DNA of 64,000 nucleotides from Clostridia bacterium (GTDB lineage: Bacteria > Bacillota > Clostridia > Oscillospirales > CAG-272). Of this stretch, positions 20,924 through 35,627 are shown one piece after another (the stretch's first letter is position 1; the number at the start of each line of letters is the position of its first letter). The translations under genes and the position numbers were made by a program. The notes under the pieces were generated by a model. The model worked only from the letters and a program-made list of their open reading frames with translations, made no database searches and had not been told where the DNA came from. Location: assembly GCA_017416205.1 (NCBI GenBank), contig JAFQDC010000107.1, forward strand, positions 11,345-75,344, given 5' to 3'.

Positions 20924-21778
20924 TTATCTCTTGAGAACAGCTTGGTCTTTGGCAGGACTGGCTCTACCGGCAATATCCGGAGCTCTGCGTTCAAGGGCTG
21001 CAAAGGATATTTCAATATCCTCGCGAGCTTCATGCTCACTGAAGCAGCCTACGGTTACCATATCGCAATCACGGATAGTAGCCCAGTTGAAGTTTAGTCC
21101 TACGAAGGGAGTAGTTCTGCCTGCCGCCATTGACTTGATAGTCATAACAGGTTTTTTTGCATTTCTGATAATGCTGTTAACGGCTTCTACCTCCACCTGC
21201 ATAAGAAAGCCCATACAGTTATATATCTGTATGTACGTTTCAACGTCATAACCGTTTTCGTCGGAATATATAACGAGCTCGGGCATATGTGCAGAAACTC
21301 CGGGGATCATTCCGGCGTCGCGGATCATTTTTGTATAGTCATCAAGTCTGTCAATGGTACGTGTCCTTTTGCAAACGAGCTGCTCTGCGGAATAGTGGTG
21401 AATAAGGCAGAATTTTGCGCCTCTTTGTGCTGATTCTTTGATAGCTCGCTCAGCATCACGGCGGCCTTCAGCTGAATCATCAACGTTAACGATGGGGGTA
21501 TCCACCATGATCATTTCATGGCCTGTTTTTTCTTGTGCAAGGAGAACAGCCTTATGAATATGGGGAGCCTGATCAAAGGGGGCCATAACGGTATCTATGC
21601 CGTGTTCAAGGAAAGTTTCAAGCATAGGGAGCATGGACTCGGGCTCGCGATACCTATTTTTTATCATATTATCGGCCGAGGGTGTTCTGTGACTATAGCC
21701 TGCGACCCAGTTGGTTCCGACAATCATTCTGGAAACGGAAAGTCCGCCAACCTCAGTTCTCGGGAATTGTTTTTTCAT
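20924..21778 (-). CDS. hypothetical protein (possibly TIM-barrel/aldo-keto-reductase-like)
   Basis: 284 aa. Coding potential is clear, but only the N-terminus (LSVSRMIVGTNW) weakly recalls AKR-type barrels. No family recognised. Confidence 0.4.
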   Translation of the reverse strand: MKKQFPRTEVGGLSVSRMIVGTNWVAGYSHRTPSADNMIKNRYREPESMLPMLETFLEHGIDTVMAPFDQAPHIHKAVLLAQEKTGHEMIMVDTPIVNVDDSAEGRRDAERAIKESAQRGAKFCLIHHYSAEQLVCKRTRTIDRLDDYTKMIRDAGMIPGVSAHMPELVIYSDENGYDVETYIQIYNCMGFLMQVEVEAVNSIIRNAKKPVMTIKSMAAGRTTPFVGLNFNWATIRDCDMVTVGCFSEHEAREDIEISFAALERRAPDIAGRASPAKDQAVLKR

Positions 21779-21830: not shown

Positions 21831-23033
21831 TCAAAGAGCAGAAACGAGCGCTTCTGTATCGCGAGCGATCATAAGCTCTTCGTTTGTGGGGATAAGGTAA
21901 ACCTTAACCTTGGAGTCTTCTGTGGAAAGCTCAACGATGTCAGACTGGTGATGAGCTGCAGCGTTGACTTCCTTGTTGATCTTGATTCCGTAGTATTCCA
22001 TGTCTGAGCATACTCTTTCACGGAGTTCAGTATTGTTCTCACCCATACCTGCTGTGAATACAACTGCATCAAGTCCGTTCATGGAAGCAGCGTAAGAGCC
22101 GATGAACTTCTTGATCTGGTATGCGAGAGTAGAAGCTGTGAGGTAAGCTCTCTCGTTGCCCTCAAGGATTGCAGCCTCGATGTCACGGCTGTCGGAGGAA
22201 ATGCCGGAGAGACCCTCAAATCCGCACTTCTTGTTCATGAAGTCGCTCATTTCATCGGGAGTCATGCCTGTCTTCTTCATAACGTAAGTTACAACAGCGG
22301 GGTCGATATCACCGCAACGTGTACCCATCATAACGCCTGCGAGAGGAGTCATACCCATAGAAGTGTCTACGCACTTACCGTCTTTAACGGCGGTGATGGA
22401 GGAACCGTTACCGATGTGACATGTAACGATATGTGTACCCTCTGTTTTGCCGAGGATCTTGCACATCTCAGCAGCTACGAAGCGATGGCTTGTACCATGA
22501 GCACCGAAACGACGGATGGAAAGCTCCTGGCACATCTCGTAGGGAAGGGCATATGTATATGCCTGGGGAGCCATAGACTGATGGAATGCTGTATCAAATA
22601 CAAGAACCTGAGGAACGCCGGGCATAGCCTTTGTGCAACCCTCGATACCCATAAGGTGTGCGGGTGTGTGAAGAGGAGCAAGGTCTACACAGTTAGAGAG
22701 CTTTGCAATAACTTCATCGTTTACTAGAACGGATTCAGAGAAGTATGTTCCGCCATGGACAACTCTGTGTCCAACAGCCTCGATCTCAGACATATCAGCG
22801 ATGCAACCGAACTCTTTATCGGTGAGGTAGTCGATAACGATACCTGTAGCAACTGCGTGGTCGGGCATGGGGATCTCTTTCTTGATCTTATCTCCGTTTG
22901 CGAGCTTATGCTCAATGCGACCGTCAAGACCGATTCTCTCGCAGATACCCTTTGCGAGAACTGCTTCTGTAACAGTATCAAAAAGCTGATACTTAAGGGA
23001 GGAGCTGCCTGCGTTAACAACAAGAACCTTCAT
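21831..23033 (-). CDS. ackA: acetate kinase
   Basis: 400 aa. MKVLVVNAGSSSLKYQLF N-terminus, VGHRVVHGG and FTAGMGEN motifs. Confidence 0.95.
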   Translation of the reverse strand: MKVLVVNAGSSSLKYQLFDTVTEAVLAKGICERIGLDGRIEHKLANGDKIKKEIPMPDHAVATGIVIDYLTDKEFGCIADMSEIEAVGHRVVHGGTYFSESVLVNDEVIAKLSNCVDLAPLHTPAHLMGIEGCTKAMPGVPQVLVFDTAFHQSMAPQAYTYALPYEMCQELSIRRFGAHGTSHRFVAAEMCKILGKTEGTHIVTCHIGNGSSITAVKDGKCVDTSMGMTPLAGVMMGTRCGDIDPAVVTYVMKKTGMTPDEMSDFMNKKCGFEGLSGISSDSRDIEAAILEGNERAYLTASTLAYQIKKFIGSYAASMNGLDAVVFTAGMGENNTELRERVCSDMEYYGIKINKEVNAAAHHQSDIVELSTEDSKVKVYLIPTNEELMIARDTEALVSAL

Positions 23034-23071
23034 AGTTTATAAAATTCCTTTCAAAGAAAAAAATTAATTAT

Positions 23072-23100
23072 TTGACATTTGCTGTGCATTGATATAGAAT
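23072..23100 (+). promoter_or_regulatory. sigma-A type promoter
   Basis: TTGACA, 17 nt, TAGAAT, upstream of the 23179 ORF. Confidence 0.55.
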
Positions 23101-23178
23101 ATTAAAGTAGACGCACAACATAATAATTATATATCATGTTATTTATAAATACAATAGTTTTTTGGGGATTTTTTAAAA

Positions 23179-24240
23179 ATGAAGAAGATTTCGGCAGTAA
23201 TATGTGAGCTTAATCCTTTACATAGCGGTCACAGGCATATTTTCGGCGAAGCCAAAAAATGCAGCGACGTTCTGATAGCAGTAATGAGCGGAAATTTCGT
23301 ACAGCGTGGCGAAACTGCGGTGTATGATAAATATAAAAGAGCGAAAAGTGCTATTTCGGCAGGTGCAGATATTGTTCTTGAATTGCCATTTCCGTTTTCT
23401 TCGTCAAGCGCAGAATATTTTGCCCGTGCCGGAGTGCATATTGCAGAGTCTGTCGGTGCCGATACACTGTATTTCGGCAGTGAATGCGGAGATGTTGAGA
23501 TTCTCAGAAAATGCGCCGAAGTAATGAACAGTGAAGAATACAGAACGGCAATGACTGTAGGCAGAAGTGCAGAGCTGAGATCTCTTTATCTTAAAGAAAA
23601 TATTCCCGATTTACCTCCTTCTGTATTGGAGTCTCCTAATGATATACTCGGTGTTGAGTATTGCAGATTTGCAAGTATTGATACCGTTGCCGTTAAGCGG
23701 ATAAGTACAGAAAGTGCTTCTTCAATACGTATGCGCAGATTGAAGGATGAAAATTCAGATATGCTTGACCCAACAAGGCTGTTTCAGCTTGAATACAACA
23801 AATTCAGAACTCAGAGAAGTGTAGATCCTGATATTGCAGAATGCACCGGCGGTGTAGGCGAACGTCTATATAATAACGCTTTCAAAACCCCAAATTATTC
23901 CGAATGGATAGAAGCTGTTAAAACCAAGCAGTACACAAACGCAAGGCTCAGAAGAGCAGCTTTGTTTTACTTGTGTGGAGTAAGCGAAGATGATATTAGG
24001 GAAAAGCCATATTTCACAAGGTTATTGGCTGTAAATTCTAACGGAATAGATTATCTTTCTGGTATCAAAAAATGCTGTGATTTTCCTATAATTACAAGCG
24101 CCCGTGAAAGAAAGAATCTTTCCGAGAAAGCTTTAAAGCAGTATCTTCTTTCAGAGTTTGCTGATACTGTATATTCGCTTTGTCTGGGAGAAACAGATCC
24201 ATGTTTGTTTTCGAGGATTCCGCCTGTTGTTAATAGGTAA
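23179..24240 (+). CDS. tmcAL: nucleotidyltransferase of the UPF0348/YlbM family (tRNA-Met cytidine acetate ligase TmcAL-like)
   Basis: 353 aa. N-terminal ICELNPLHSGH nucleotidyltransferase motif and an overall YlbM-like layout. Confidence 0.75.
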   Translation: MKKISAVICELNPLHSGHRHIFGEAKKCSDVLIAVMSGNFVQRGETAVYDKYKRAKSAISAGADIVLELPFPFSSSSAEYFARAGVHIAESVGADTLYFGSECGDVEILRKCAEVMNSEEYRTAMTVGRSAELRSLYLKENIPDLPPSVLESPNDILGVEYCRFASIDTVAVKRISTESASSIRMRRLKDENSDMLDPTRLFQLEYNKFRTQRSVDPDIAECTGGVGERLYNNAFKTPNYSEWIEAVKTKQYTNARLRRAALFYLCGVSEDDIREKPYFTRLLAVNSNGIDYLSGIKKCCDFPIITSARERKNLSEKALKQYLLSEFADTVYSLCLGETDPCLFSRIPPVVNR

Positions 24241-24288
24241 ACTGCACAAAAAACATTTAAATTATAGCACTGTTTGTTGCAATTTTCA

Positions 24289-24317
24289 TTGACAAACAGT
24301 GCTTTCGTATTTATAAT
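24289..24317 (+). promoter_or_regulatory. consensus sigma-A promoter of the sugar operon
   Basis: TTGACA, 17 nt, TATAAT. The -35 lies inside a 12-bp perfect inverted repeat (24266-24277 / 24292-24303). Confidence 0.7.
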
Positions 24318-24345
24318 AGTAGTAACTGAGCAAAGGAGACTTTGT

Positions 24346-25653
24346 ATGTATATAGGTATAGATCTTGGTACGACAGGCTGTAAGACCGTGCTTTTTGACG
24401 GCGATGGTCGAGCGTTATGTGAGTATAACAAAGAATATGAGCTGATATTTAAGGGAACCTTCGTGGAGCAGGATGCCAATGATTGGTGGAGGCTTGTTCT
24501 TGATGGAATGAAGCACGTTGTTTCCGAAAGCGGAATTAGTGATATTCGCGGCATTTCCGTAAGTACTCAGGGGATTTCATTCGTTCCCGTTGATAAGGAT
24601 GGAAACACTCTTTATAATGCTATCAGCTGGCTTGATATGAGAGCTGAAAGGGAATGTGAAGAGCTTATTGAAAGATTTGGGCACAAGACTGTTTTTGATA
24701 TTACGGGAAAGCATTGTCTTTGTGATTACTCGCTTCCTAAGATCCGTTGGTTTACAGATAATTGCAAGAACGTACTTGAGGATACCTGGAAGATCCTTTT
24801 CCCACTTGACTATCTTAATTTAAAGCTTTGCGGAAACGCTGTCACCGATTATACAATTGCCGGCGGATCTATGCTTTATGACATTCACAATAAGGAATGG
24901 CATAAGGAATTACTGGATTTTGCAGGTATAACTGAGGATATACTTCCCAAAGTTTTGCCTATGGGTAGCGATATCGGAGCCCTTCTTCCTGCAGTTTCTG
25001 AAGAGGTAGGCATTACAGGCGAGTGCAGAGTGTATCTTGGCGGTCAGGATCAGAAGCTTGCAGCCATCGGTGCAGGTATTGGCGGTGACGTATGTACCGT
25101 CTCATTCGGTACTGCTACGGCGATATCACGACTTGCAGATAGATTTGAATTTGATAAAAACAGTTCAGTTACTCTTTTCAGATTTGATGATGAAAAATAC
25201 ATAAGAGAAGTGGCGCTTATGACAACAGGCGCTGCCCTCAGATGGCTTACAAGAACCCTTTACGGCGGTATTTCTTACAGAGAAATGGATACACTTGCGG
25301 CTGAAAGCGAGCCCGGAGCAAACGGGGTTAAGTTCAAGTGTGATCTTTCTGTGGGGGGCGTGATTTCAGGTATTACGCTTTCTACAAAAGCATCAGATAT
25401 CGTTTATGCTTTATACGAGGGAGTTGCTGAGGATATTGCAGCGGCTGTCAGTCAGCTTGGAGGAGCTTCCTGCCTTAAGGTTTTTGGCGGTGGTGCGAAA
25501 AGCGAGATATGGTGCTCAATTGTATCAAGAGTATGCAATATTCCCGTTGAGATATTGAGTATCCCCGAGACCGCCTCTCTCGGTGCTGCGATTCTCGCTT
25601 CCAATGGTGCAATTGCACCGGCTGCAGTTAAAAAGGTATTGACTGATTTTTAA
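24346..25653 (+). CDS. FGGY-family carbohydrate kinase
   Basis: MYIGIDLGTTGCK start after AAAGGAG, and a C-terminal GGGAKSEIW motif. I prefer ATG 24346 over the ORF-track start at 24274. Confidence 0.85.
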   Translation: MYIGIDLGTTGCKTVLFDGDGRALCEYNKEYELIFKGTFVEQDANDWWRLVLDGMKHVVSESGISDIRGISVSTQGISFVPVDKDGNTLYNAISWLDMRAERECEELIERFGHKTVFDITGKHCLCDYSLPKIRWFTDNCKNVLEDTWKILFPLDYLNLKLCGNAVTDYTIAGGSMLYDIHNKEWHKELLDFAGITEDILPKVLPMGSDIGALLPAVSEEVGITGECRVYLGGQDQKLAAIGAGIGGDVCTVSFGTATAISRLADRFEFDKNSSVTLFRFDDEKYIREVALMTTGAALRWLTRTLYGGISYREMDTLAAESEPGANGVKFKCDLSVGGVISGITLSTKASDIVYALYEGVAEDIAAAVSQLGGASCLKVFGGGAKSEIWCSIVSRVCNIPVEILSIPETASLGAAILASNGAIAPAAVKKVLTDF

Positions 25654-25676
25654 AATTAAATTGTAAGGAGATATAT

Positions 25677-26609
25677 ATGTTCAAATTTGATCCCGCACCT
25701 TTCGTGCCGTATAAGAACCGTGAGGTTCTTGAAAGATGCAGAAACATCAAGCGCGAGGATATGGAGAAGCATCCTAATCCAAACTTCCGTATCCACCTTG
25801 TCCCTTCCTGTGAGGGAATTTGGGTTGGAGATATGGTATCGAGGATCATGCGCTCCGATATTCTTGACGAAAAATGCGTAATGATTCTTCCTAATCCCTG
25901 CCCAACGATTTATCTTGCGGTAGCTGAGTCCATCAATAAGCTCAACGTAAACTGCCGCAATCTTCACATTTTCATGATGGATGAATGGGCAGATCAGGAC
26001 GGAAATATCGCTCCTCTTGATTATACTGCAGGCTTTGCGCACAGCAATATGAAGTATTTCTATTCTGCGATCAGAGAGGATCTTCGTCCTCCTCTCAGCC
26101 AAGTGCACTATCCCACCAATGAGAATGTAAATTGCTATTCCGACCTTATTGAGGAATGCGGTGACGGCGGTGCAGATATATGCTACTCCGGTCCCGGTTG
26201 GACAGGCCACATAGCATTTATTGACCCTCTGACTCCCGAATTCGGTTGCCCTCCTATAGATGAGTATCTTCAGATGGGTGCACGTATTGTTACACTTAAT
26301 CCCATGACGATCCTTCAGAATTCTCTTCACGGATGCTTTGGATGCTCAGGTGATATTGCAAACGTACCTCCAAAGGCTTTCACAATAGGTCCCCGCGATA
26401 TCAAGAATTCAAAGAACAGACTCGAAATGCATGATCTTACCACTATGGGTACGTATTCCTCGTGGCTTAGAATGACATCCCGTCTTGTTCTTTACGGAGA
26501 GGTAACTCCTCTTGTCCCTTCATCCATACTTCAGCTTATGGATACCGATGTGTATGTTACCGAGGCTATTGCGCAGCCCTTTGGCTGTGAAGAGCTTGTC
26601 GGATACTGA
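25677..26609 (+). CDS. NagB/6-phosphogluconolactonase-superfamily protein (glucosamine-6-P deaminase-like), copy 1
   Basis: 310 aa. The FMMDEW motif aligns with the NagB (F/L)DEY motif. It is longer than canonical NagB. Tandem paralogue of the next gene. Confidence 0.6.
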   Translation: MFKFDPAPFVPYKNREVLERCRNIKREDMEKHPNPNFRIHLVPSCEGIWVGDMVSRIMRSDILDEKCVMILPNPCPTIYLAVAESINKLNVNCRNLHIFMMDEWADQDGNIAPLDYTAGFAHSNMKYFYSAIREDLRPPLSQVHYPTNENVNCYSDLIEECGDGGADICYSGPGWTGHIAFIDPLTPEFGCPPIDEYLQMGARIVTLNPMTILQNSLHGCFGCSGDIANVPPKAFTIGPRDIKNSKNRLEMHDLTTMGTYSSWLRMTSRLVLYGEVTPLVPSSILQLMDTDVYVTEAIAQPFGCEELVGY

Positions 26610-26636
26610 TACTTTACTAACTTAAGGAGAAAAACT

Positions 26637-27569
26637 ATGTTTACTTTTGAGCCCGCACCGTTCGTGCCTTATAAGAATAAAGAGGTTCTTGAAAGATGCA
26701 GAAACATTAAACGTGAGGATATGGAAAAGCATCCTAACCCCAATTTCCGTATTCATATCACACCTGCAGTCGGTGGTATTTGGGTAGGCGATATGGTCGC
26801 AAGAATCGTTCGCTCAGATCTTATGAATGAGAAGTGTGTTATGATCCTTCCTAACCCTTGTCCCGTAGACTATATGGCAGTAGCTGAGTCTATTAACAGA
26901 CTTAACGTTAACTGCCGTAACCTTTACGTGTTTATGATGGACGAGTGGGCTGACCAGGACGGAAATATTGCTCCTCTTGATTACAAAGCAGGCTTTGCTC
27001 ATTCAAATCTTAAGTATTTCTACGGATCTATTCGCGAGGATCTTCGTCCTCCTCTTGATCATTTTGTATATCCCACAAATGAAAACTGCAAGGATTATTC
27101 CAAGCTCATCGCTGAGTGCGGTGGCGGCGGTGCCGACATTTGCTATTCCGGTCCGGGATGGGCAGGCCATATTGCATTTATCGATCCCGACACACCCGAG
27201 TTTGGTTGTCCTCCCATTGAAGAATATCTTGAGATGGAGGCTCGCATCGTAACTCTTAATCCTATGACTATTCTTCAGAACTCTCTCCACGGTTGTTTTG
27301 GTTGCTCCGGTGATATTGCAAACGTACCTCCCAAGGCATTTACAATCGGACCTGTTGACGTAAAGAATTCTAAGAACCGTTTTGAGATGCATACACTTAC
27401 GACTATGGGTACGTACTCCTCCTGGCAGAGAATGGTTTCCCGTCTCGTTCTTTACGGAGAGGTTACACCTCAGGTTCCTTCTTCCATCCTTCAGCTTATG
27501 GACACAGACGTATACGTAACTGAAGACATTGCAGCGCCCATCAAGGTTGATGAGCTTGTAGGATATTAA
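26637..27569 (+). CDS. NagB/6-phosphogluconolactonase-superfamily protein, copy 2
   Basis: 310 aa, colinear with copy 1 without gaps. A large majority of residues are identical by eye. Confidence 0.6.
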   Translation: MFTFEPAPFVPYKNKEVLERCRNIKREDMEKHPNPNFRIHITPAVGGIWVGDMVARIVRSDLMNEKCVMILPNPCPVDYMAVAESINRLNVNCRNLYVFMMDEWADQDGNIAPLDYKAGFAHSNLKYFYGSIREDLRPPLDHFVYPTNENCKDYSKLIAECGGGGADICYSGPGWAGHIAFIDPDTPEFGCPPIEEYLEMEARIVTLNPMTILQNSLHGCFGCSGDIANVPPKAFTIGPVDVKNSKNRFEMHTLTTMGTYSSWQRMVSRLVLYGEVTPQVPSSILQLMDTDVYVTEDIAAPIKVDELVGY

Positions 27570-27571
27570 TA

Positions 27572-28651
27572 ATGAATTATACTATTTACGGTACGGTTGT
27601 CAGTGGAGACCAGGTGATCTCCTCCGGCGCCGTAGCCGTTGAAAACGGAAAGATCATATATTGCGGCACCCGTGCTGATGCTCCTGACTGTGGCGAGATT
27701 TTTGACTTTGGTGACGGGCTTATAGTTCCCGGATTTATTGATATCCATTGCCACGCAGGAAATGATAAATGGTTCTATGAGGATCCTGTCGCTTGTGCTG
27801 AGTATCACCTTGCTCACGGAACAACAAGCATGTGCGCAACTCTGTACCGCGATATGACAATTGATGAGACCGTCAAGGCAATCGCGGATATTCGAAGTGC
27901 TATGAACAGCTGTAAGAATATTATAGGTGTACACCTTGAAGGACCGTATCTTAATCCCAGATACGGCTCTATGATGCAGAGCGGCGAGGTCGTTGCCGAT
28001 CCTGCCGATTATATGAGGCTTTTTGCTGATGACACTGTTGTTCATGTAAGCTTTGCCCCCGAGGTCAAGGGTACTGATAAGCTTTTAAAGATACTGAATG
28101 AAAAGGGAATCGTACCTGCTATCGGACACAGTATGGCTTCATATGATCAGGTAAAAGCGGCTGTTGACGGTGGAGTTAAAAACGTTACTCATTTGTTTGA
28201 CGCTACCGGCGCTTCTATATCACCTACAAGATGGGACGGTACCATTGAAGTCGATTTTAATGCGGCTGCTTTGCTTTGCGACGGTATTACATACGAGATA
28301 ATATGTGATAAGGACGGAGTTCACGTTCGCCCCGAAATGCTCAGACTTGCGGCAAAGACTGTTGGTATAGATAACCTTATCGGTATCACAGATGCCTGTG
28401 CCGACGGGGAAGAGGGAAGCGACGTAAATATTGTAAACGGTGAGTTGACAGGCTCAAAGCTTACAATGAACAAAGTCTTTAAGAACTTTGTTAACGTTGG
28501 TTTCACACTCTGTGATGCTGTGAAGTTCACTTCTTCGAATGCAGCCCGACTTATGGGCCTTTACGGCAAGGGCTCTATTTCAGTGGGTATGGATGCCGAT
28601 ATTACCGTACTCGACAAGGATTATAACGTATTAAAGGTTTTTAAAGCCTGA
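27572..28651 (+). CDS. amidohydrolase, N-acetylglucosamine-6-phosphate deacetylase (NagA)-like
   Basis: 359 aa. Metal-binding GFIDIHCH, HLEGPYLNP, GHS and THLFD motifs in NagA order. Confidence 0.75.
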   Translation: MNYTIYGTVVSGDQVISSGAVAVENGKIIYCGTRADAPDCGEIFDFGDGLIVPGFIDIHCHAGNDKWFYEDPVACAEYHLAHGTTSMCATLYRDMTIDETVKAIADIRSAMNSCKNIIGVHLEGPYLNPRYGSMMQSGEVVADPADYMRLFADDTVVHVSFAPEVKGTDKLLKILNEKGIVPAIGHSMASYDQVKAAVDGGVKNVTHLFDATGASISPTRWDGTIEVDFNAAALLCDGITYEIICDKDGVHVRPEMLRLAAKTVGIDNLIGITDACADGEEGSDVNIVNGELTGSKLTMNKVFKNFVNVGFTLCDAVKFTSSNAARLMGLYGKGSISVGMDADITVLDKDYNVLKVFKA

Positions 28652-28682
28652 ATTAATAATTACAAAAAGAAGGTGCATTTTT

Positions 28683-29951
28683 ATGCTTAAAGCCGGAATA
28701 GCAATCAGAGACATCTCTCCAAAGCCCGGTGTTGAAATGGCAGGTTATCCTCACTGTCCCCGTCCCAATATAGGAGTACACGATCCTCTTTACTGCGTTG
28801 CTCTCCATCTTGATAACGGACACGACAGTATTACTATGCTTACTTTTGATCTTCTTTATTTCGGTAAGAAGTATTGTAAGATGATGCGTGATAAGTTTGG
28901 CGGAAAGATTATGTTTACGTCAAGCCATACTCACTCAGGTCCTTGGTGCTCAACTCCTCTTGCTTCTGAAATTGCAGAGGGACTTGATAATGATCCCACA
29001 TACATAGCTCAGCTCCTTCCTCTTGTTGAAGAGTGTATAACCGAAGCAAGAAGCAATTTGTTCGATGCTAAGATCGCAACAGGCATCGGTCATTGCGGTA
29101 AAGAGCAGGGCGTTGGCGGTAATCGCCGTGTGAAGAATGGTCTTCAGGATGATTCCGTTAACGTAATTTGTGTAAAGGATATGAATGATACAGTCAGAGG
29201 TATTCTTCTCAATTATGCTCTTCATCCCACGTTCCTTCACGCAGAAAGCCTTTGGGTAACTGCTGATTATCCCGGATATATCCGCAGATTCCTTAAATTT
29301 GCTTATCCCGAAGCTCACTTTATGTTTGCTCAGGGTACAAGCGGAAATCAGTCCTCAAGATATCATAGAGTAGGACAGAATTTCGAAGAAGCTGCAAGAG
29401 TTGGTGCGACTCTTGGCGTCGAGGTATTCCATACCATCAATAAGATGGAGTTTACCGATGAGATCGAATTCGAGTGGAAATCTACGGAAGTTGAACTTCC
29501 TATCAGAACATATCCGCCTCTTGAAAAGGCAAGAGCAGATATGGAAGCTGCAAGAAAGCGCTTCGCTGAAATGCCTGATGATGACTATATTGCAAAGAGA
29601 AATGCTGAGCTTGATATGTTCGGTCGTGAAAATGAGTTCTATTATGCAGAGCAGTTTGAGCAGACAGGACACGTGACTGAGGGCGAGCTTCCTTGTGAGG
29701 TTATGACACTGAAGCTTGGTGATACTCTCATTTGTGCAATGCAAGGTGAGATATTCGTTGAATACGGTCTCGATCTTAAGGCTTCTTCTCCCTGCGAAAA
29801 AACTTTTGTGTTTGAAGTAACCAACGGTTCACTTCCCGGATATATTTTCACAAATGAAGCATTTGATGAAGGCGGATACGAGGTAGGTACCTCCGTGTTT
29901 ACAAGAGAAGCCGGAGAAGTTCTTATTGATGCTATCAAATCTCTGTTCTGA
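28683..29951 (+). CDS. neutral/alkaline ceramidase-like N-terminal-domain hydrolase (function unknown)
   Basis: 422 aa. ISPKPGVEMAGY... and SSHTHSGP motifs resemble the bacterial ceramidase-like family. Assignment by recollection only. Confidence 0.45.
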   Translation: MLKAGIAIRDISPKPGVEMAGYPHCPRPNIGVHDPLYCVALHLDNGHDSITMLTFDLLYFGKKYCKMMRDKFGGKIMFTSSHTHSGPWCSTPLASEIAEGLDNDPTYIAQLLPLVEECITEARSNLFDAKIATGIGHCGKEQGVGGNRRVKNGLQDDSVNVICVKDMNDTVRGILLNYALHPTFLHAESLWVTADYPGYIRRFLKFAYPEAHFMFAQGTSGNQSSRYHRVGQNFEEAARVGATLGVEVFHTINKMEFTDEIEFEWKSTEVELPIRTYPPLEKARADMEAARKRFAEMPDDDYIAKRNAELDMFGRENEFYYAEQFEQTGHVTEGELPCEVMTLKLGDTLICAMQGEIFVEYGLDLKASSPCEKTFVFEVTNGSLPGYIFTNEAFDEGGYEVGTSVFTREAGEVLIDAIKSLF

Positions 29952-29966
29952 TTAAGGAGAACAAAT

Positions 29967-30755
29967 ATGAATATTATTGACAGATTCAGACTTGACGGTA
30001 AGGTTGCTCTTGTTACCGGCGGTTCCGGATGGTACGGAACTCAGATGGTTCTTGCACTTGCGCAGGCAGGCGCTACCGTTTGCTGTGCTTCAAGAAATCT
30101 AGAAAACTGTAAGAAGTTTACCGATGAGCTTAACGCACAGGGATATGATAAGGTCTACGCCGATTCATACGATCAGGCAGACGAGGAAAGCATAAAAGCT
30201 TTGCTTGCAAGAATGGTTGAAAGAGACGGCAAGGTAGATATTCTTGTTAATAACTCTGTTCTTCGTCCCATGCACGAGTATGATGATCCTCTTGAGAACT
30301 TTGCAAAATCAATGGAAGTTAATGCTACCGGCCTTTTTGCGATCACCAGAGCATTCGGTGATCAGATGGAAAAGAACGGCGGTGGAAGCATTATCAATAT
30401 CGGTTCTTATATGGGTATCTGCGGCTCCAATCCTTATCTCTACGAGGATGACCCGTCAATGGATGCAGTCGGATCTCCCGATTATTTCTTCCACAAGGGC
30501 GGTATGGTAAATCTTACAAGACTTATCGCTGCTCGCTACGGACATGCAAACGTAAGAGTTAACTGTCTTAATCTCGGCGGACTCTTTAATCATCAGCCCG
30601 AGGGATTTCTTGAGAGATATGCAAAAATGAATTATCTCGGAAGAATGGCAAACGAGACAGATATTCAGGGCGTTCTTGTTTTCCTTGCATCTGATGCTTC
30701 CGCATATATTACAGGCACATCCATCAACGTAGACGGTGGTTACACCGCAAGATAA
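29967..30755 (+). CDS. SDR-family oxidoreductase
   Basis: 262 aa. Glycine-rich VTGGSGWYG motif, NNS motif and a classical SDR C-terminus (ITGTSINVDGGYT). Confidence 0.85.
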   Translation: MNIIDRFRLDGKVALVTGGSGWYGTQMVLALAQAGATVCCASRNLENCKKFTDELNAQGYDKVYADSYDQADEESIKALLARMVERDGKVDILVNNSVLRPMHEYDDPLENFAKSMEVNATGLFAITRAFGDQMEKNGGGSIINIGSYMGICGSNPYLYEDDPSMDAVGSPDYFFHKGGMVNLTRLIAARYGHANVRVNCLNLGGLFNHQPEGFLERYAKMNYLGRMANETDIQGVLVFLASDASAYITGTSINVDGGYTAR

Positions 30756-30770
30756 CGTTTGAGGTGTTAT

Positions 30771-31556
30771 ATGGAATTTCATATGAGAAACAGCAGGGTC
30801 CTCAGAAAAATGAGGGAAGGCAAGGTTGCCACCTGCACAAAGATTAATCTTTCTGATCTCAGAAACTGCGAGATCGCTGCTATGTGCGGCTTTGACTGCA
30901 TATGGGTAGATATGGAGCATATTCCGAACGATTTCGCATTTATAGAAAACTCTGTCAGAGCTGCCAAGAATTTTGACGTTGATGTGCTTTGCAGAGTTGC
31001 CAAGGGCGGTTATAATGACCTTATTCGTCCTCTTGAGGCTGATTGCGCAGGTATTATGGTGCCTCATCTTATGAGCCTTGAGGAAGCAAAAAAAATAGTT
31101 TATTTCACAAAATTCCATCCTGTCGGAAGACGTCCCATAGACGGCGGAAATGCTGACGGTATGTATTGTCTTGTGGAAGAGCAGGAATATATCAAGACTG
31201 CGAACGAAGAACGCTTTGTAATCGTTCAGATAGAGGATCCCGAGCCTCTTGATGAGCTTGAGGAGATTTGTGCTCTTCCCGGAATTGATATGATATTCTT
31301 CGGCCCTGCTGATTTCAGCCAGGGTATAGGTAAGCCCTATATCTGTGATGATCCTTTGGTTCTTGAAATTAAAAAGCGTGTTGCAGAATGTGCTCGTAGG
31401 CACGGAAAATGGGCAGGTACTGTTGGTGGTACCGGCAACTTTGACTCTCTTGTTGAAATGGGATATACATTTATTTCAGTTGGTGCTGACGTTGTAGGTC
31501 TGTGGGATTATTATCTCAATATATCCAAGCAGATAAGTGGGAAGGATATCAAATAA
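30771..31556 (+). CDS. HpcH/HpaI-family aldolase (2-keto-3-deoxy-acid aldolase type)
   Basis: About 261 aa. GFDCIWVDMEH, VQIEDPE and FFGPADFS motifs typical of HpcH/HpaI aldolases. The start is ambiguous (30759, 30771 or 30783). Confidence 0.75.
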   Translation: MEFHMRNSRVLRKMREGKVATCTKINLSDLRNCEIAAMCGFDCIWVDMEHIPNDFAFIENSVRAAKNFDVDVLCRVAKGGYNDLIRPLEADCAGIMVPHLMSLEEAKKIVYFTKFHPVGRRPIDGGNADGMYCLVEEQEYIKTANEERFVIVQIEDPEPLDELEEICALPGIDMIFFGPADFSQGIGKPYICDDPLVLEIKKRVAECARRHGKWAGTVGGTGNFDSLVEMGYTFISVGADVVGLWDYYLNISKQISGKDIK

Positions 31557-32494
31557 TGAAATACACAACTGTTTTGGGTAAAAAAGTTTCAAAGATGTCT
31601 CTTGGAACCGTGCAGTTCGGTCTTCATTACGGTATTGCCAACGATGTCGGTAAGCCCGAAGAGTCCCAAAGTGCCGATATGATGAATTATGCTTTAAAAA
31701 ACGGTGTAACAAGCATTGATACGGCACGTGCATACGGAGATTCAGAAGAGATAATCGGAAGATTCTTTAAGGGATACAGCGGAGAGATTCCTTTTATATC
31801 TACCAAAGTTCCTCCATATCAGAATATTGATGATATCGCGGGACTTGAGAAGCATATCATTGAAAGTGTTGAAACCTCTCTTCAATGTCTTGGTCTGCAT
31901 AAGGTTGACAACATAATGCTTCATAATGGTGTCAGTCTTACAATAAACGGTGACAGGACTGCCAAGATCATGGGAGACCTTATAAAGCGCGGTTATTGCG
32001 ATATGGTAGGCGCTTCTGTGTATAACGCCTCGGAGATCGATAAAATGCTTTCTTATGAGCAGTATACCGTAACACAGATCCCCATGAGTATTTTTGATCA
32101 GCGTCTTATCAATACGGGATATGTGGACAAGCTTTCCAAGCGAGAATATACGGTTTTTGTCAGAAGCGTATTTTTACAGGGACTCTTCTTTTTGGATCCT
32201 GAGAAGATCACCGATCCGATACTCCTTGAGCATGCTTGCCCCGGAATATTAAAGCTTCGTGACCTTGCTGAAAAAGAGGGAATGAGTATTGCTGAGATGG
32301 CAATTTCATTTTTACGCGATTATCCCGGAGTTACAAGCCTTGTGCTTGGCTCTGATAACGTAGACCAGGTAAGCTCAAACATTCACTATTTTGATGCCCA
32401 TCCTCTTAGCGAGGAAACAAACAGTATTTTGAAAAAAACATTCGCAGACGTGAACATACCCGAGATCATGAAGGTGCTTTCACGTCCCAAGTAA
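31556..32494 (+). CDS. aldo/keto reductase
   Basis: MKYTTVLGKKVSKMSLGTVQFG N-terminus and IDTARAYGDSEE motif. The ATG overlaps the stop of the aldolase gene (TAATG). Confidence 0.85.
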   Translation: MKYTTVLGKKVSKMSLGTVQFGLHYGIANDVGKPEESQSADMMNYALKNGVTSIDTARAYGDSEEIIGRFFKGYSGEIPFISTKVPPYQNIDDIAGLEKHIIESVETSLQCLGLHKVDNIMLHNGVSLTINGDRTAKIMGDLIKRGYCDMVGASVYNASEIDKMLSYEQYTVTQIPMSIFDQRLINTGYVDKLSKREYTVFVRSVFLQGLFFLDPEKITDPILLEHACPGILKLRDLAEKEGMSIAEMAISFLRDYPGVTSLVLGSDNVDQVSSNIHYFDAHPLSEETNSILKKTFADVNIPEIMKVLSRPK

Positions 32495-32507
32495 ACGAGG
32501 TAGCATT

Positions 32508-33473
32508 ATGTCTAATTTTCCTCTTGGTGATAAAGAAATTAAGATCGGTATCCTCGGAATGACTGAAGGTAACGGTCACCCTTATTCATGGAGCGCTATT
32601 TTTAACGGATATAACTGGGATTATATGAAGGATTGTCCCTTTCCTGTGATTCCCCAGTATCTTTCAAAGCAGCCTCCTGAAACCTTTGGTATTCCCGGTG
32701 CAAAGATTACACATATCTGCTGTACAGGATATGCTGAACGAGAAATGGCTGAGCATATGGCAAAGGCTTCAAACATTCCAAACGTAGTTGATGATCCTCT
32801 TGAAATGCTTGGTCAGGTTGATGCTGTCATTTGTGCAACAGATGTTGGCGACGAGCATATAGAGCGCTGCAAGCCCTTCCTTGATGCAGGACTTCCTATG
32901 TTTATAGACAAGCCTCTTATCAACAAGGAAGAAGATCTTAAAACATTCGTAAAATGGAGGAAAGAGGGTAAAAAGTTTATTACCTGCTCAAGTCTTCGTT
33001 TTGCAAAGGAGTATACTCCATACCACGGTTCAACATATGAGTTTGGTAAGCTTATGTATATCTGTTCTCCTATGTCAAAGAAATGGGAGACTTATGGTAT
33101 ACATGCCCTTGAGCAAATGTATCCCATTCTCGGTCCCGGCTTTGTTTCTGTTCAGAATACGGGAACGTTTGAGCGTACTCACGTGCATTTGGTTCATAAG
33201 AGCGGATGCAGAGTTGATATTCCACAGGGAATCGGAATGGCAGGTGCCGGAATCCTTCTTATAGGAAGCGCGGGAAGCGCGTATCTGAACTCTATGGATT
33301 CATATTTTGATTTCAAAACTCAGCTCGTAAAGTTTGTTCATTGGCTCAGAACGGGCGAGGAGCCTTTCCCCTTTGAAGAAACTGTTGAGCTTATGAAGAT
33401 GGTCGTTGCAGGTCTCAGAAGCCGTGAGGAAGGCGGAAGAGTTGTAATGCTCGACGAGATCAATATTGATTAA
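32508..33473 (+). CDS. Gfo/Idh/MocA-like oxidoreductase
   Basis: 321 aa. N-terminal Rossmann-like IKIGILGMTEGNGHPYSW. Last gene of the operon. Confidence 0.6.
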   Translation: MSNFPLGDKEIKIGILGMTEGNGHPYSWSAIFNGYNWDYMKDCPFPVIPQYLSKQPPETFGIPGAKITHICCTGYAEREMAEHMAKASNIPNVVDDPLEMLGQVDAVICATDVGDEHIERCKPFLDAGLPMFIDKPLINKEEDLKTFVKWRKEGKKFITCSSLRFAKEYTPYHGSTYEFGKLMYICSPMSKKWETYGIHALEQMYPILGPGFVSVQNTGTFERTHVHLVHKSGCRVDIPQGIGMAGAGILLIGSAGSAYLNSMDSYFDFKTQLVKFVHWLRTGEEPFPFEETVELMKMVVAGLRSREEGGRVVMLDEINID

Positions 33474-33474
33474 C

Positions 33475-33509
33475 AAAAAAGTGATGCGGTGACCCGCATC
33501 ACTTTTTTT
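33475..33509. terminator. bidirectional terminator
   Basis: A-run, GTGATGCGG tgac CCGCATCAC, T-run, between convergent genes. Confidence 0.85.
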
Positions 33510-33514
33510 ATATT

Positions 33515-34939
33515 TTAATGCCTCTTTTTCAGTCGGAAGAAAAGTCTTGCGAGGGCTTTTGCGTTGAATGGCACCAGAGGATATAAATAATTTCTTTTTC
33601 CGTTTACGGTTTTGTTCGTTGCAACAAGAATGAAAGTAATAATGATTCCCGAGAGCAATCCCCACAGACCGAATAAAGCTGTAAGAAGCAAGGTGAGCAT
33701 TCTCATATATTTAAATGCGTATCCAAGCTCGTAGGATGATTGAGTGAAGTTCGTTATTGCTACAAATGCCATATAAAGAATTACGTCGGGACACAGCCAG
33801 CCTACTTGTACTGCAAAATCTCCGAGGAGAAGACCTCCCACGACTGAAAGGGAGTTTGACAAAGTGCTTGGTGTGTTAAGTGACGCCAGCTTCAGGCCGT
33901 CAAGCACAAACTCGGTCAAAAATAGCTGAACGATTATCGGAAGCTGTCCCGGATCCTTTGGGATAACAAAGCTCATCCATTGCGGAAGTGAGCTTTCGTA
34001 TTGTAAGAGAAGATACCACAAAGGAGTAATTATAACTGTAAGCCAGAATATTATATGCCTGATTATACGCAGATACGTTCCGGTCAGCGGAGGAAAATAA
34101 TAATCGTCTGTTTCCTGAAGAAAGTCAAAAATAGAAGTCGGAAAGAGCATTGCTTCCGGGCTGTTGTCGCATATAAGGACAACGCCTCCTTCAAGAATGG
34201 TTGCAGCAACTGCATCAGGCCGCTCTGTTGTTCTTATTTTTGGAAATGGGTTGTACCATTTTTGATTTATCAGAGTTTCAGCGACACTTCTGTGTCCCAT
34301 CACAAGGGAATGACATTTCATATTACTTATGCGGTTTGTAAGCTCGTTAACATAATCACTGTCAGCTTCTCCCTCAATATAACAAAGTGCCATATCGGTA
34401 CGGGTTTGTGTTCCCGCAGTAAGATATTTGATACGAAGCTTTGGGTCGCGTATCCTACGACGTATCATCGCAGTATTGAATATCATCGTTTCCACAAAAC
34501 CGTCACGGCTTCCTCGCATGACTCTGTCATTTTCGGGCTCAGACGTGGTTCTTGCAGGATACGTGCGCATATCGATAACAAGGGCATTTGGACCAAAGCC
34601 TTCGCAAAGAAACGCCGTACAACCCGAAAGAACAGCAACAGTAAGCGCATCGATACTGTTCTGAACGTCGACCTCAACGGCAGGAAGGGAAGTGTCTGCA
34701 AACTGCTTTGCGGCATCTCTGCTTTTGTCGCCAAGATCTTTAACGGAAAACAGATGCATCATAAGCTTTTGCATTGACTCAGCTTTAATGAATCCGTCAA
34801 CGTAGTACATAACGCACTTTGTATTCGCAATATTCAGTGTTCTTTTGATCAGATCGAAGTTTTCATCACACTTAAGGATATTATCCATTTCTGTGACGTT
34901 CTTCTCAAAATCATTACTTAATATATCTCTATTAACCAT
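33515..34939 (-). CDS. GerA-family spore germination protein / SpoVAF-like
   Basis: 474 aa. Soluble N-terminal domain plus a C-terminal block of TM helices, typical of GerAA/SpoVAF. No adjacent GerAB or GerAC genes. Confidence 0.7.
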   Translation of the reverse strand: MVNRDILSNDFEKNVTEMDNILKCDENFDLIKRTLNIANTKCVMYYVDGFIKAESMQKLMMHLFSVKDLGDKSRDAAKQFADTSLPAVEVDVQNSIDALTVAVLSGCTAFLCEGFGPNALVIDMRTYPARTTSEPENDRVMRGSRDGFVETMIFNTAMIRRRIRDPKLRIKYLTAGTQTRTDMALCYIEGEADSDYVNELTNRISNMKCHSLVMGHRSVAETLINQKWYNPFPKIRTTERPDAVAATILEGGVVLICDNSPEAMLFPTSIFDFLQETDDYYFPPLTGTYLRIIRHIIFWLTVIITPLWYLLLQYESSLPQWMSFVIPKDPGQLPIIVQLFLTEFVLDGLKLASLNTPSTLSNSLSVVGGLLLGDFAVQVGWLCPDVILYMAFVAITNFTQSSYELGYAFKYMRMLTLLLTALFGLWGLLSGIIITFILVATNKTVNGKRNYLYPLVPFNAKALARLFFRLKKRH

Positions 34940-35030: not shown

Positions 35031-35627
35031 TTAATAATATCTGATACTTGCGACTACCTTGCCGAGAATCCGAACGTGGTCTGTAAAAATAGGCTCGTAT
35101 TCATCATTTTCGGGCTGAAGTCGGAATTTTCCGTCCTCAGCATAAAAGGTTTTAACGGTAGCTTCGTCATCAATAAGAGCAACAATGATCTCTCCGTTAT
35201 ACGCAACGTCACAGCGCTCAACAATAACTGTATCGCCGTCAAGGATTCCCGCATTGATCATACTTCTGCCGCGAACCTTAAGCGCAAAAAGGGAAGAGGA
35301 GTTGAATCTTCTGCCTTCGGGAGAAAAGGTAACAAACCCGTCGTTATCCTCATAAGCAAAGATGGGTGAGCCCGCGGTAACCTTTCCTATAACGGGTACT
35401 CTGTACACCGGGGTATCGTCAACAGGGCGAAGAGAGCGACTCTTTGAAGCATCCTTTCTGAGGTATCCCTTGTCACAAAGCTTTTCTATATAGTTGTATA
35501 CAGTAGCGGTACTGCCGATACCCATCGCCGCTCTTATGTCACGAACGCTTGGTGAATAGCCGGTTTCCTCGAACTGACGTGTTATGTAATCAAATATTTC
35601 TTTTTCACGGGGGGTGAGCTGTTCCAT
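35031..35627 (-). CDS. lexA: LexA repressor
   Basis: 198 aa. N-terminal wHTH, an AG cleavage site (GKVTAGSP), catalytic Ser (RGRSM) and Lys (TVKTF). Confidence 0.95.
   Translation of the reverse strand: MEQLTPREKEIFDYITRQFEETGYSPSVRDIRAAMGIGSTATVYNYIEKLCDKGYLRKDASKSRSLRPVDDTPVYRVPVIGKVTAGSPIFAYEDNDGFVTFSPEGRRFNSSSLFALKVRGRSMINAGILDGDTVIVERCDVAYNGEIIVALIDDEATVKTFYAEDGKFRLQPENDEYEPIFTDHVRILGKVVASIRYY

Follow-up and report, generated by a model that had tools for sequence, protein, structure and literature searches.

The catabolism of N-acetylglucosamine (GlcNAc) proceeds through NagK or a PTS, NagA and NagB, that is, through a kinase, a deacetylase and a deaminase. Sialic acid is degraded by the products of nanATEK-yhcH with nagBA in E. 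coli and of the nan cluster with NanOx in Ruminococcus gnavus; here a pyruvate lyase is combined with an amino-sugar kinase, a deacetylase and a deaminase. The glucarate/galactarate and L-rhamnonate routes employ HpcH-family aldolases (GarL, RhmA/YfaU), which split a 2-keto-3-deoxy sugar acid into pyruvate and an aldehyde that is then reduced. In the ong pathway of Pseudoalteromonas for GlcNAc1A (oxidised chitin), an N-acetyl amino-sugar acid is deacetylated and deaminated to a 2-keto-3-deoxy acid, and a kinase is also involved (PMC9537276). Unlike the locus described below, this pathway uses the D-aminoacylase OngB, the PLP deaminase OngC, RidA and KdgK.

In a DNA stretch of 64,000 nucleotides (the window) from a rumen Clostridia bacterium, nine genes on the plus strand were confirmed as given in the initial annotation. 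Judged from their sequences, they form a real, tightly packed catabolic operon with amino-sugar logic, presumably transcribed as one unit. The operon consists of two modules, A (the kinase, both NagB-like proteins, the NagA-like deacetylase and the amidase) and B (the SDR, the aldolase, the aldo/keto reductase and the Gfo-like protein). The features, in window coordinates, are as follows.

24266-24303, plus strand: 12-bp inverted repeat/hairpin overlapping the -35 element of the promoter (RNA fold -18.4 kcal/mol, z -4.15)
24289-24317, plus strand: sigma-70-type promoter, TTGACA-17-TATAAT
24346-25653, plus strand: FGGY-family sugar kinase, 435 aa (PF00370, 205.7 bits; PF02782, 50.4 bits)
25677-26609, plus strand: long NagB-like protein, copy 1, 310 aa, putative amino-sugar-phosphate deaminase/isomerase (weak nagB NCBIfam match)
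26637-27569, plus strand: long NagB-like protein, copy 2, 310 aa, tandem paralogue (84% identity to copy 1)
27572-28651, plus strand: NagA-like metal amidohydrolase, 359 aa, putative N-acetyl-amino-sugar-phosphate deacetylase (TIGR00221, 161.9 bits)
28683-29951, plus strand: ceramidase-fold zinc amidase, 422 aa, catalytic domain only, putative second N-deacylase (assigned by fold)
29967-30755, plus strand: SDR oxidoreductase, 262 aa (PF13561, 127.7 bits)
30759-31556, plus strand: HpcH/HpaI class II (metal-dependent) pyruvate aldolase, 265 aa (PF03328, 75.2 bits, above the cut-off)
31556-32494, plus strand: aldo/keto reductase (AKR), 312 aa (PF00248, 131.6 bits)
32508-33473, plus strand: divergent Gfo/Idh/MocA-fold oxidoreductase, 321 aa (PF01408, 26.7 bits; cut-off 24)
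33475-33508, plus strand: intrinsic terminator (stem of 15 pairs, loop of 4 nt, T-tail)

Between positions 23000 and 34000, the promoter was the sole 12/12 sigma-70 match and the terminator the only strong one, so the bracketing of the nine genes proposed earlier was borne out. Both promoter elements, TTGACA and TATAAT, are conserved among relatives. The kinase gene starts at the ATG at 24346, which is preceded by AAAGGAGA; a start at the TTG of the long ORF (24274) was rejected because it would include the promoter. For the AKR gene, the start is the ATG at 31556, which overlaps the HpcH stop codon in TAATG and fits the length of its relatives (311-312 aa). After these corrections, the intergenic distances are, in order, 23, 27, 2, 31, 15, 3, -1 and 13 nt, and the small gaps reported before are thus confirmed. 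The hairpin at 24266-24303 is followed by TTTCGTATTTAT. It is retained in the related loci L007, L008 and L010, where one A-T pair has undergone a compensatory change to G-C and one pair has become a G.U wobble; no second copy of the site was found elsewhere in the genome. It probably serves the upstream tmcAL-like gene as an intrinsic terminator, although it could also be read as an operator.

The family assignments were clear for FGGY_N/C, Amidohydro_1 (with nagA as the top NCBIfam model), adh_short, HpcH_HpaI and Aldo_ket_red. Those to Ceramidase_alk and GFO_IDH_MocA were weak by sequence, and both were confirmed by fold.

The kinase of module A belongs to the FGGY family and not to the ROK or BcrAD types found in GlcNAc catabolism. 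Both of its domains scored above the Pfam cut-off and no equivalog model was reached: the top NCBIfam model, XylB, gave 283 bits, below its cut-off of 380, and xylulo-, glycerol- and gluconokinases matched about equally in the PDB. No FGGY kinase is known to act on N-acetylhexosamines, which counts against our best explanation.

The two NagB-like proteins are about 50 aa longer than NagB and gave no Pfam match, PF01182 included. Against the nagB model (TIGR00502; cut-off 236.9) they remained far below the threshold, with 27.9 bits for copy 1 and 34.5 bits for copy 2. The profile of their family, which numbers at least 3488 homologues at 90% clustering, matched only GlcN6P deaminases in the PDB, and the alignment covers MDEW, GHIAF-IDP and R203. 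Invariant in the family are the Asp of MDE, the His of GHIAF and the Arg aligned with that of the NagB motif TRIKTL; we take these to be the counterparts of D72, H143 and the phosphate-binding R172 of E. coli NagB. The Asp/His core and this Arg are thereby kept, whereas the position of the NagB Glu (NEP) is occupied by Asp (IDP) and the Lys of VPK lies one residue off. The duplication is also present in L007 and L008, and with a dN/dS of about 0.05 both copies are old and under strong purifying selection.

The NagA-like protein scored below the equivalog cut-off (225.65 bits) of TIGR00221. It can be aligned full-length to NagA structures (6fv3), and the metal ligands in DIHCH (HxH), HLEGP (Glu), GHS and THLF are all kept, as is the Asp of TDA; the position of this catalytic Asp is marked by the D-to-A mutant structure 6fv4. 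It also has an Arg at the position of the Arg in NagA R-x-P-G.

In the case of the amidase, PF04734 gave 19.2 bits, below the gathering cut-off of 32.1. Its AF2 model (pLDDT 93.7) matched only neutral ceramidases in Foldseek (E 6e-25, TMq 0.74-0.76, TMt about 0.5). Like these enzymes (PDB 2zws, 4wgk), it has the catalytic-domain fold with the zinc-site motifs, and the alignment shows SHTHSGP (HxH-S-G-P), LHPT with its His, FAQGTSGN, and the Glu and Tyr positions as matching. Unlike them, it has 422 aa instead of 630-670 and no C-terminal domain, its first fold strand lies at its very start, and it is encoded in a cytoplasmic sugar operon. Because the catalytic residues are kept in the NagA- and ceramidase-like proteins and, apart from the Glu-to-Asp change, in the NagB-like ones, we regard the following core of the putative pathway as best supported: phosphorylation by the kinase, two N-deacylations, and a deamination that yields a ketose phosphate.

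As regards module B, the closest NCBIfam models for the SDR were of the gluconate 5-dehydrogenase and KduD types, both under their cut-offs. The aldolase matched 2-keto-3-deoxy sugar-acid aldolases in the PDB, and its scores against the GarL, HpaI and RhmA equivalogs were 84-108 bits, compared with cut-offs of 369-441. For the Gfo-like protein, a sequence search of the PDB returned no match; its AF2 model (pLDDT 90.3) has the Rossmann plus alpha/beta fold and was similar in Foldseek to inositol dehydrogenases and other GFO enzymes (TMq about 0.7), and DKP (an EKP-type Lys motif) is invariant in its family. Unlike the glucarate/galactarate and L-rhamnonate routes, the operon includes no dehydratase able to yield a 2-keto-3-deoxy acid from a deaminated sugar.

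The host genome carries canonical nagA (362 bits) and nagB (270 bits) side by side on another contig, both above the cut-off, while the operon copies reach 158-162 and 28-34 bits, respectively, in the same comparison. Since the true nagA-nagB pair sits elsewhere, the operon is not the ordinary GlcNAc route, from which it also differs by a second amidase and the aldolase/redox module. Nor does the operon correspond to the canonical nan set (the lyase NanA, the ROK kinase NanK and the epimerase NanE), its kinase being of the FGGY family. In this 94.7%-complete genome, NanE had no match and no NanA was above the cut-off, the best candidates, both outside the operon, having 130 and 104 bits against 382. 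The view that the gene set departs from the standard GlcNAc, GalNAc, ManNAc and sialic-acid sets is thus supported, and we found no published description of such an operon or pathway.

Based on the above results, we suggest that the operon probably encodes a cytoplasmic route for an N-acylated amino sugar other than GlcNAc, with two modules whose substrates and order of steps are deduced from the genes. In module A, the FGGY kinase would place a phosphate on a terminal hydroxyl of the sugar. The NagA-like deacetylase and the ceramidase-fold amidase would then take off N-acyl groups, which may both sit on one sugar or be alternatives to each other. Aldose-ketose deamination by the long NagB-like proteins would give a ketose phosphate and ammonia. 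In module B, HpcH may split a 4-hydroxy-2-oxo (2-keto-3-deoxy, ulosonic-type) acid into pyruvate and an aldehyde, and the SDR, AKR and Gfo-like enzymes may set the oxidation state or stereochemistry of the acid or of its aldehyde product. As no dehydratase is present, a role for the aldolase at the start of the route, as a lyase on an ulosonic acid, is no less likely than one at its end; this absence also leaves no chemical link between module B and what module A produces, which counts against the proposed route. We slightly prefer the order in which module B precedes module A and would free the N-acyl amino sugar from an acidic precursor (cf. sialate lyase). On the alternative reading, module B deals with a second product.

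The NagB-like/NagA-like pair occurs in at least 590 species genomes from several phyla. The core, versions of which are present in hundreds of anaerobic species, was found in Bacillota, Lentisphaerota, Kiritimatiellia, Verrucomicrobiia, Spirochaetes, Actinomycetota and Bacteroidota from guts, rumen, digesters and sediments. Of 80 species loci, 61 have the NagA-like gene next to the NagB-like one, 55 contain a second amidase of the ceramidase-like or creatininase-like kind, and 49 contain an FGGY kinase. All four module B genes are present in only seven, and module A stands without module B in most. Elsewhere, the Gfo-like, SDR and AKR genes co-occur with HpcH or a class I DHDPS-family aldolase, and also with other partners. 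From this gene context, the operon is a combination of two recurrent modules, found separately and together in other genomes. The initial proposal of a single linear route that starts from an N-acyl amino sugar and ends in pyruvate and an aldehyde is therefore not established, the modules being separable.

It is unlikely that the operon is instead a NanE-independent sialic-acid route. HpcH would be the lyase (Neu5Ac/Neu5Gc to pyruvate and ManNAc/ManNGc) and the FGGY enzyme a ManNAc kinase. The NagA-like protein would deacetylate ManNAc-6-P, the amidase would take the N-glycolyl variant, and the NagB-like proteins would convert mannosamine-6-P directly to fructose-6-P. The NanE and NanA results agree with this reading, and a C2-epimer substrate would account for a separate, highly conserved NagA/NagB-like pair. 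Related clusters, other than the operon itself, hold DHDPS/NanA-family aldolases, DUF386 (YhcH/NanQ family), GDSL esterases, a Gfo/NanOx-like enzyme and a CUT1 ABC importer. The minimal form of the cluster, with only DeoR, kinase, amidase, NagB-like and NagA-like genes, would require no downstream enzymes. However, HpcH aldolases are not known as sialate lyases, and the three oxidoreductases are left with no role. The SDR and the AKR, like the class II aldolase and the ceramidase-fold enzyme, set the operon apart from sialic-acid catabolism. Moreover, many versions of the cluster add sugar-phosphate isomerases (SIS, TIM-like) and an FSA-type aldolase, which would be unexpected with fructose-6-P as the product, and members of the NagB-like family are also frequent in digesters and sediments and among marine Bacteroidota, settings with little host sialic acid.

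Quite improbable, in our opinion, is a doubly N-acylated diamino sugar of microbial envelopes, such as a 5,7-diacetamido nonulosonic acid after lyase cleavage or a 2,3-/2,4-diacetamido sugar. Two amidases and two NagB-like proteins would account for the loss of two acyl and of two amino groups, with the oxidoreductases acting on keto intermediates. At least two different N-deacylases are always present, with PIG-L or M20 deacylases employed in other cluster versions, which brings the unrelated deacylase families to five (NagA-like, ceramidase-like, creatininase-like, PIG-L and M20). Sugar aminotransferases lie within related clusters (DegT in L123, Aminotran_3 in L004 and L005), the NagB-like genes repeatedly occur as duplicates or together with a divergent paralogue, and the habitat range is wide. 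Nevertheless, the nine-gene operon has no aminotransferase, and two NagB-like copies with 84% identity do not indicate different substrates. In addition, the common bacterial nonulosonic acids are 9-deoxy, and their cleavage product would offer no terminal hydroxyl to the FGGY kinase or to the phosphate site that the NagB-like proteins seemingly keep.

The lowest probability is given to two unrelated pathways on one promoter, where module A would be a self-contained amino-sugar route and module B a non-phosphorylative route from a nitrogen-free sugar acid or deoxy sugar (KDG-, Kdo- or 6-deoxyhexonate-type) to pyruvate and an aldehyde. The long NagB-like gene is missing from 14 of the 18 Clostridia genomes carrying the Gfo-like gene (present in 4), which in one lineage adjoins UxaC and flavoenzymes; the modules could therefore serve different substrates. 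This would also agree with the rarity of the complete module B noted above and with a relative that has TIM-like, SIS, YjbQ and another Gfo gene at the same chromosomal site, but where module B lacks the long NagB-like gene it usually still lies beside NagA-like, ceramidase-like, PIG-L, DegT and, in some genomes, distant NagB-fold genes, a neutral sugar route would call for a dehydratase or lactonase that the operon does not have, and the nine-gene order is conserved in L007, L008, L009 and L014 and partly in L013.

It is conceivable, though unlikely, that the core and its aldolase-redox partners represent the missing pathway by which an abundant but overlooked sugar of microbial envelopes is catabolised. 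Candidates could be a bacterial nonulosonic acid, a di-N-acyl diamino sugar or an N-acetyl-hexosaminuronic acid (e.g., the talosaminuronic acid of methanogen pseudomurein). If so, three activities would be new: a soluble ceramidase-fold sugar N-deacylase, an amino-sugar-phosphate deaminase family and an FGGY N-acyl-amino-sugar kinase. At least three families of the operon (long NagB-like, cytoplasmic ceramidase-fold amidase and divergent Gfo-like) have no studied member in such a setting. The identity of the substrate would fill a gap in the recycling of nitrogen-bearing sugars by anaerobic communities, and would correct the labels "hypothetical protein" and "glucosamine-6-phosphate deaminase" on named homologues.

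No transporter or regulator was found within or beside the nine genes, whose neighbours are the tmcAL-like gene (HIGH_NTase1) and ackA upstream and gerA and lexA downstream. The initial annotation, which had stated this, was right for the locus but not beyond this lineage. The neighbourhood search it had proposed revealed DeoR, LacI or ROK regulators and CUT1 or CUT2 ABC importers at related loci, DeoR regulators and ABC sugar importers often adjoining the NagB-like/NagA-like pair, which speaks for a catabolic function. A search of the host genome for orthologues of these cluster-linked DeoR or ABC genes gave no clear candidate, and this, like their absence from the locus, counts against our explanation. 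It should be noted that LexA (35031-35627), downstream of the operon, is a transcription factor, but the SOS one.

The nine plus-strand genes proposed by the initial annotation for 24266–33509 were recovered by gene and domain analysis of the window, and a scan of 23000–34000 returned the single perfect promoter and single strong terminator said to bracket them:

24289–24317, + strand, promoter TTGACA-17-TATAAT, the sole perfect match in the scan
Gene 1, + strand, FGGY kinase, start corrected to ATG 24346
Genes 2 and 3, + strand, two 310-aa proteins (long NagB-like), no Pfam match, weak NCBIfam nagB matches
Gene 4, + strand, Amidohydro_1 protein (NagA-like), nagA being the top-scoring model
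Gene 5, + strand, ceramidase-like protein, N-terminal ceramidase domain match below threshold
Gene 6, + strand, SDR
Gene 7, + strand, HpcH/HpaI aldolase
Gene 8, + strand, aldo/keto reductase (AKR), start corrected to ATG 31556
Gene 9, + strand, Gfo/Idh/MocA-like protein (Gfo-like), borderline GFO_IDH_MocA match
33475–33508, + strand, terminator of 15 pairs with a T-tail, the sole strong one in the scan

The kinase start lies 3′ of AAAGGAGA; a longer ORF from TTG 24274 was rejected because the promoter would fall inside it. The AKR start overlaps the aldolase stop codon as TAATG and fits the AKR length in relatives (311–312 aa). With the corrected starts, the intergenic distances are 23, 27, 2, 31, 15, 3, −1 and 13 nt. 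The predicted operon is flanked by a tmcAL-like nucleotidyltransferase gene and ackA upstream and by gerA and lexA downstream, and neither a permease nor a dedicated regulator is encoded in it or in its flanks, as had been claimed. Genes 1–5 are referred to as module A and genes 6–9 as module B.

Database names of the long NagB-like family are limited to "hypothetical protein" or generic deaminase labels. The only solved structures matched by the family profile were glucosamine-6-phosphate deaminases (E 2e-7 to 7e-3). In the alignment with NagB, MDEW corresponds to MDEY and GHIAFIDP to GHIAFNEP, and the invariant R203 of the family pairs with the Arg of NagB TRIKTL. We take the aligned residues to be catalytic Asp72 and His143 and phosphate-binding Arg172 of E. 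coli NagB; the position that is presumably Glu148 is Asp in the family. Based on this conservation, a phosphorylated α-amino aldose is plausibly still the substrate. Deamination of an aminoaldonate was rejected, since NagB chemistry requires an α-amino aldehyde. The tandem copies are close to saturation at synonymous sites (pS 0.72; dN/dS about 0.05), and each clusters with the corresponding copy of L007 and L008, two related clusters in other genomes, so the duplication is older than these species. A separate, independent duplication was found in L012, and in some lineages the long protein is paired with a far more divergent paralogue.

The alignment of the NagA-like protein to NagA structures covers its full length. 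HxH, two His, the Glu of HLEGP and the catalytic Asp are all retained, the D-to-A mutant entry 6fv4 showing which Asp is catalytic. The predicted model of the ceramidase-like protein (pLDDT 93.7) matched only neutral ceramidases (E 6e-25, TMq 0.74–0.76), over the catalytic domain alone; SHTHSGP, LHPT, FAQGTSGN and later Glu and Tyr positions align. Given a soluble, truncated protein encoded among sugar genes, a lipid ceramidase was ruled out. Judging by its predicted model (pLDDT 90.3; TMq about 0.7 against inositol dehydrogenases, KanD2, NanOx and YjhC), the last gene product has a genuine yet divergent Gfo/Idh/MocA fold; the DKP motif is invariant in its family. The HpcH, SDR, AKR and kinase proteins are ordinary superfamily members, none of which reached an equivalog cut-off.

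The operon is distinct from the housekeeping amino-sugar genes. On another contig of the 2.34 Mb assembly, canonical copies of nagA and nagB adjoin each other and score above the curated cut-offs (362 and 270 bits, respectively); the operon proteins score 158–162 bits against the nagA model and 28–34 bits against the nagB model. An ordinary GlcNAc operon was therefore ruled out. In the same genome (94.7% complete) NanE had no match and NanA nothing above cut-off, which agrees with the mismatch to standard routes claimed earlier. Also encoded in the genome, on two contigs (C98:4196-9251 and C37:560-2787), are three BNR_2 (sialidase-like) proteins of about 372–394 aa that look cytoplasmic; a tandem pair of them adjoins genes for a Gfo-type oxidoreductase and a xylose-isomerase-like TIM barrel, and the third lies beside an AKR-like gene.

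A homologue search with the NagB-like protein gave at least 3488 matches at E ≤ 0.001, and scanning one genome per species gave at least 590 loci in Bacillota, Lentisphaerota, Kiritimatiellia, Verrucomicrobiia, Spirochaetes, Actinomycetota and Bacteroidota. The gene content of the 80 best loci was as follows:

NagA-like gene adjoining the NagB-like gene, 61/80
Second amidase (ceramidase-like or creatininase-like), 55/80
FGGY kinase, 49/80
TIM-like isomerase, 23/80
KpsF/GutQ-type single-SIS protein, 17/80
YjbQ-family protein, 16/80
DeoR regulator, 16/80
CUT2 ABC ATPase, 15/80
All four module B genes, 7/80

L007, L008, L009 and L014 keep the nine-gene order and L013 keeps part of it (all Oscillospiraceae/Avispirillum relatives), and a minimal form comprises DeoR, kinase, creatininase-like, NagB-like and NagA-like genes. 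An M20 deacylase gene adjoins the NagB-like gene in one complete genome, and PIG-L and a DegT aminotransferase are added in another lineage. Other versions include DHDPS-family aldolases, DUF386, GDSL esterases, an FSA-type aldolase and two homologous 150-aa proteins. The genome-context search suggested by the initial annotation also recovered LacI, ROK or DeoR regulators, a CUT1 importer and a CUT2 ABC transporter in related clusters; the associated binding proteins are of generic ribose, xylose or galactofuranose types only, far under cut-off. No convincing orthologues of the cluster-linked DeoR, CUT2 ABC, TIM-like, SIS, YjbQ or creatininase proteins were found in the window's genome. Glycoside hydrolases beside the related clusters were discarded as a pointer to the sugar, being of mixed types at different loci: GH20, GH78 and GH39 at one and a GH36-like protein at another, besides several large proteins unrelated to one another.

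In Gram-positive anaerobes (L088, L012, L017, L018, L037, L139 and others), three proteins repeatedly occur together next to the amino-sugar core: a TIM-like protein of archaeal type, a KpsF/GutQ-like protein with a single SIS and no CBS domains, and a long YjbQ/UPF0047 protein (about 206 aa). At times they are accompanied by a ribulose-phosphate epimerase and an FSA-type aldolase. Mutual exclusion of SIS/TIM and module B was ruled out by L017, which carries both. The adjacent proteins of about 150 aa (L004/L005, L025, L026, L029, L032, L033, L036, L052, L080, L087, L123) had no match in Pfam, NCBIfam or PDB; they are mutually homologous (hhalign 96.6%), one has the cysteine pattern CPSKG...YCGHC...CC, and the pair is absent from the window's genome though recurrent in related clusters. 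Two of these loci come from cultured organisms, L052 from Anaerobacterium chartisolvens DSM 27016 and L080 from Maribellus sp. CM-23. No corrinoid protein lies near the pairs of URO-D-like proteins that end aldolase/redox/amino-sugar clusters in L004/L005 and in three loci of Clostridia genus g53 (L123, L126 and L127).

Evenly sampling 399 Clostridia species gave 23 with the long NagB-like gene, 18 with the Gfo-like gene and 4 with both. Without the former, the Gfo-like gene is usually still accompanied by SDR, AKR, DHDPS or HpcH aldolase, NagA-like, ceramidase-like and distant NagB-fold genes; in one family it instead adjoins UxaC and flavoenzymes. The NagB-like gene occurs in 16/24 other species of the window's own genus and in none of the 16 other sampled families of the order. 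From this occurrence, the modules are mobile and patchy.

Based on the above results, the best-supported core that we infer is phosphorylation, N-deacylation and NagB-type deamination. The sugar would be phosphorylated at the expense of ATP, one or two N-acyl groups would be taken off by two different metallo-amidases, and the NagB-type step would yield a ketose phosphate. N-acyl amines appear central to the pathway, since five unrelated deacylase families alternate across cluster versions. The SIS, TIM-like and FSA-type genes of many versions suggest a ketose phosphate other than plain fructose-6-P. Of the earlier proposed route to pyruvate and an aldehyde, the amino-sugar core is supported, but the deaminated sugar cannot directly feed HpcH because a dehydratase is absent. 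HpcH and DHDPS-family aldolases replace each other within module B, which points to a putative pyruvate lyase whose substrate would be an ulosonic or 2-keto-3-deoxy acid; this interchange and the lack of a dehydratase slightly favour a sialate-lyase-like first step. The SDR, AKR and Gfo-like enzymes would act on the acid substrate of HpcH or on its aldehyde product. Together with the SIS, TIM-like and FSA-type genes, the separability of modules A and B speaks against a simple story; substrate identity and step order are as we infer them here.

Full-text literature searches turned up no publication on this cluster. The closest characterised logic is that of the nagAB, nan and ong pathways, but the enzymes differ in all three; those of ong, which serves oxidised chitin, belong to families other than the ones in this operon (PMC9537276).

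A further feature overlaps the −35 element of the operon promoter:

24266–24303, 12-bp inverted repeat AGCACTGTTTGT...ACAAACAGTGCT

Its RNA fold (−18.4 kcal/mol, z −4.15) is followed by a T-rich run. We consider it mainly to terminate the tmcAL-like gene upstream, as an RNA hairpin fits better than a protein operator: in L007 and L010 both arms are altered together (A-T to G-C), and the change in L008 leaves only a G.U pair. The operator reading is less favoured, a whole-genome search having found no second paired copy of the half-site. The gene ended by this probable terminator encodes a HIGH nucleotidyltransferase (23179–24240, 353 aa, under equivalog cut-offs) divergent from ackA (21831–23033). 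Seven related genomes likewise have these two genes ahead of the sugar operon, which indicates a conserved chromosomal spot with varying downstream modules; at this locus one relative carries kinase, NagB-like, NagA-like and ceramidase-like genes, then TIM-like, SIS, YjbQ and Gfo genes. Between ackA and xylA, a 284-aa protein (20924–21778) without a Pfam match has homologues in the same position in L007, L008 and L010.
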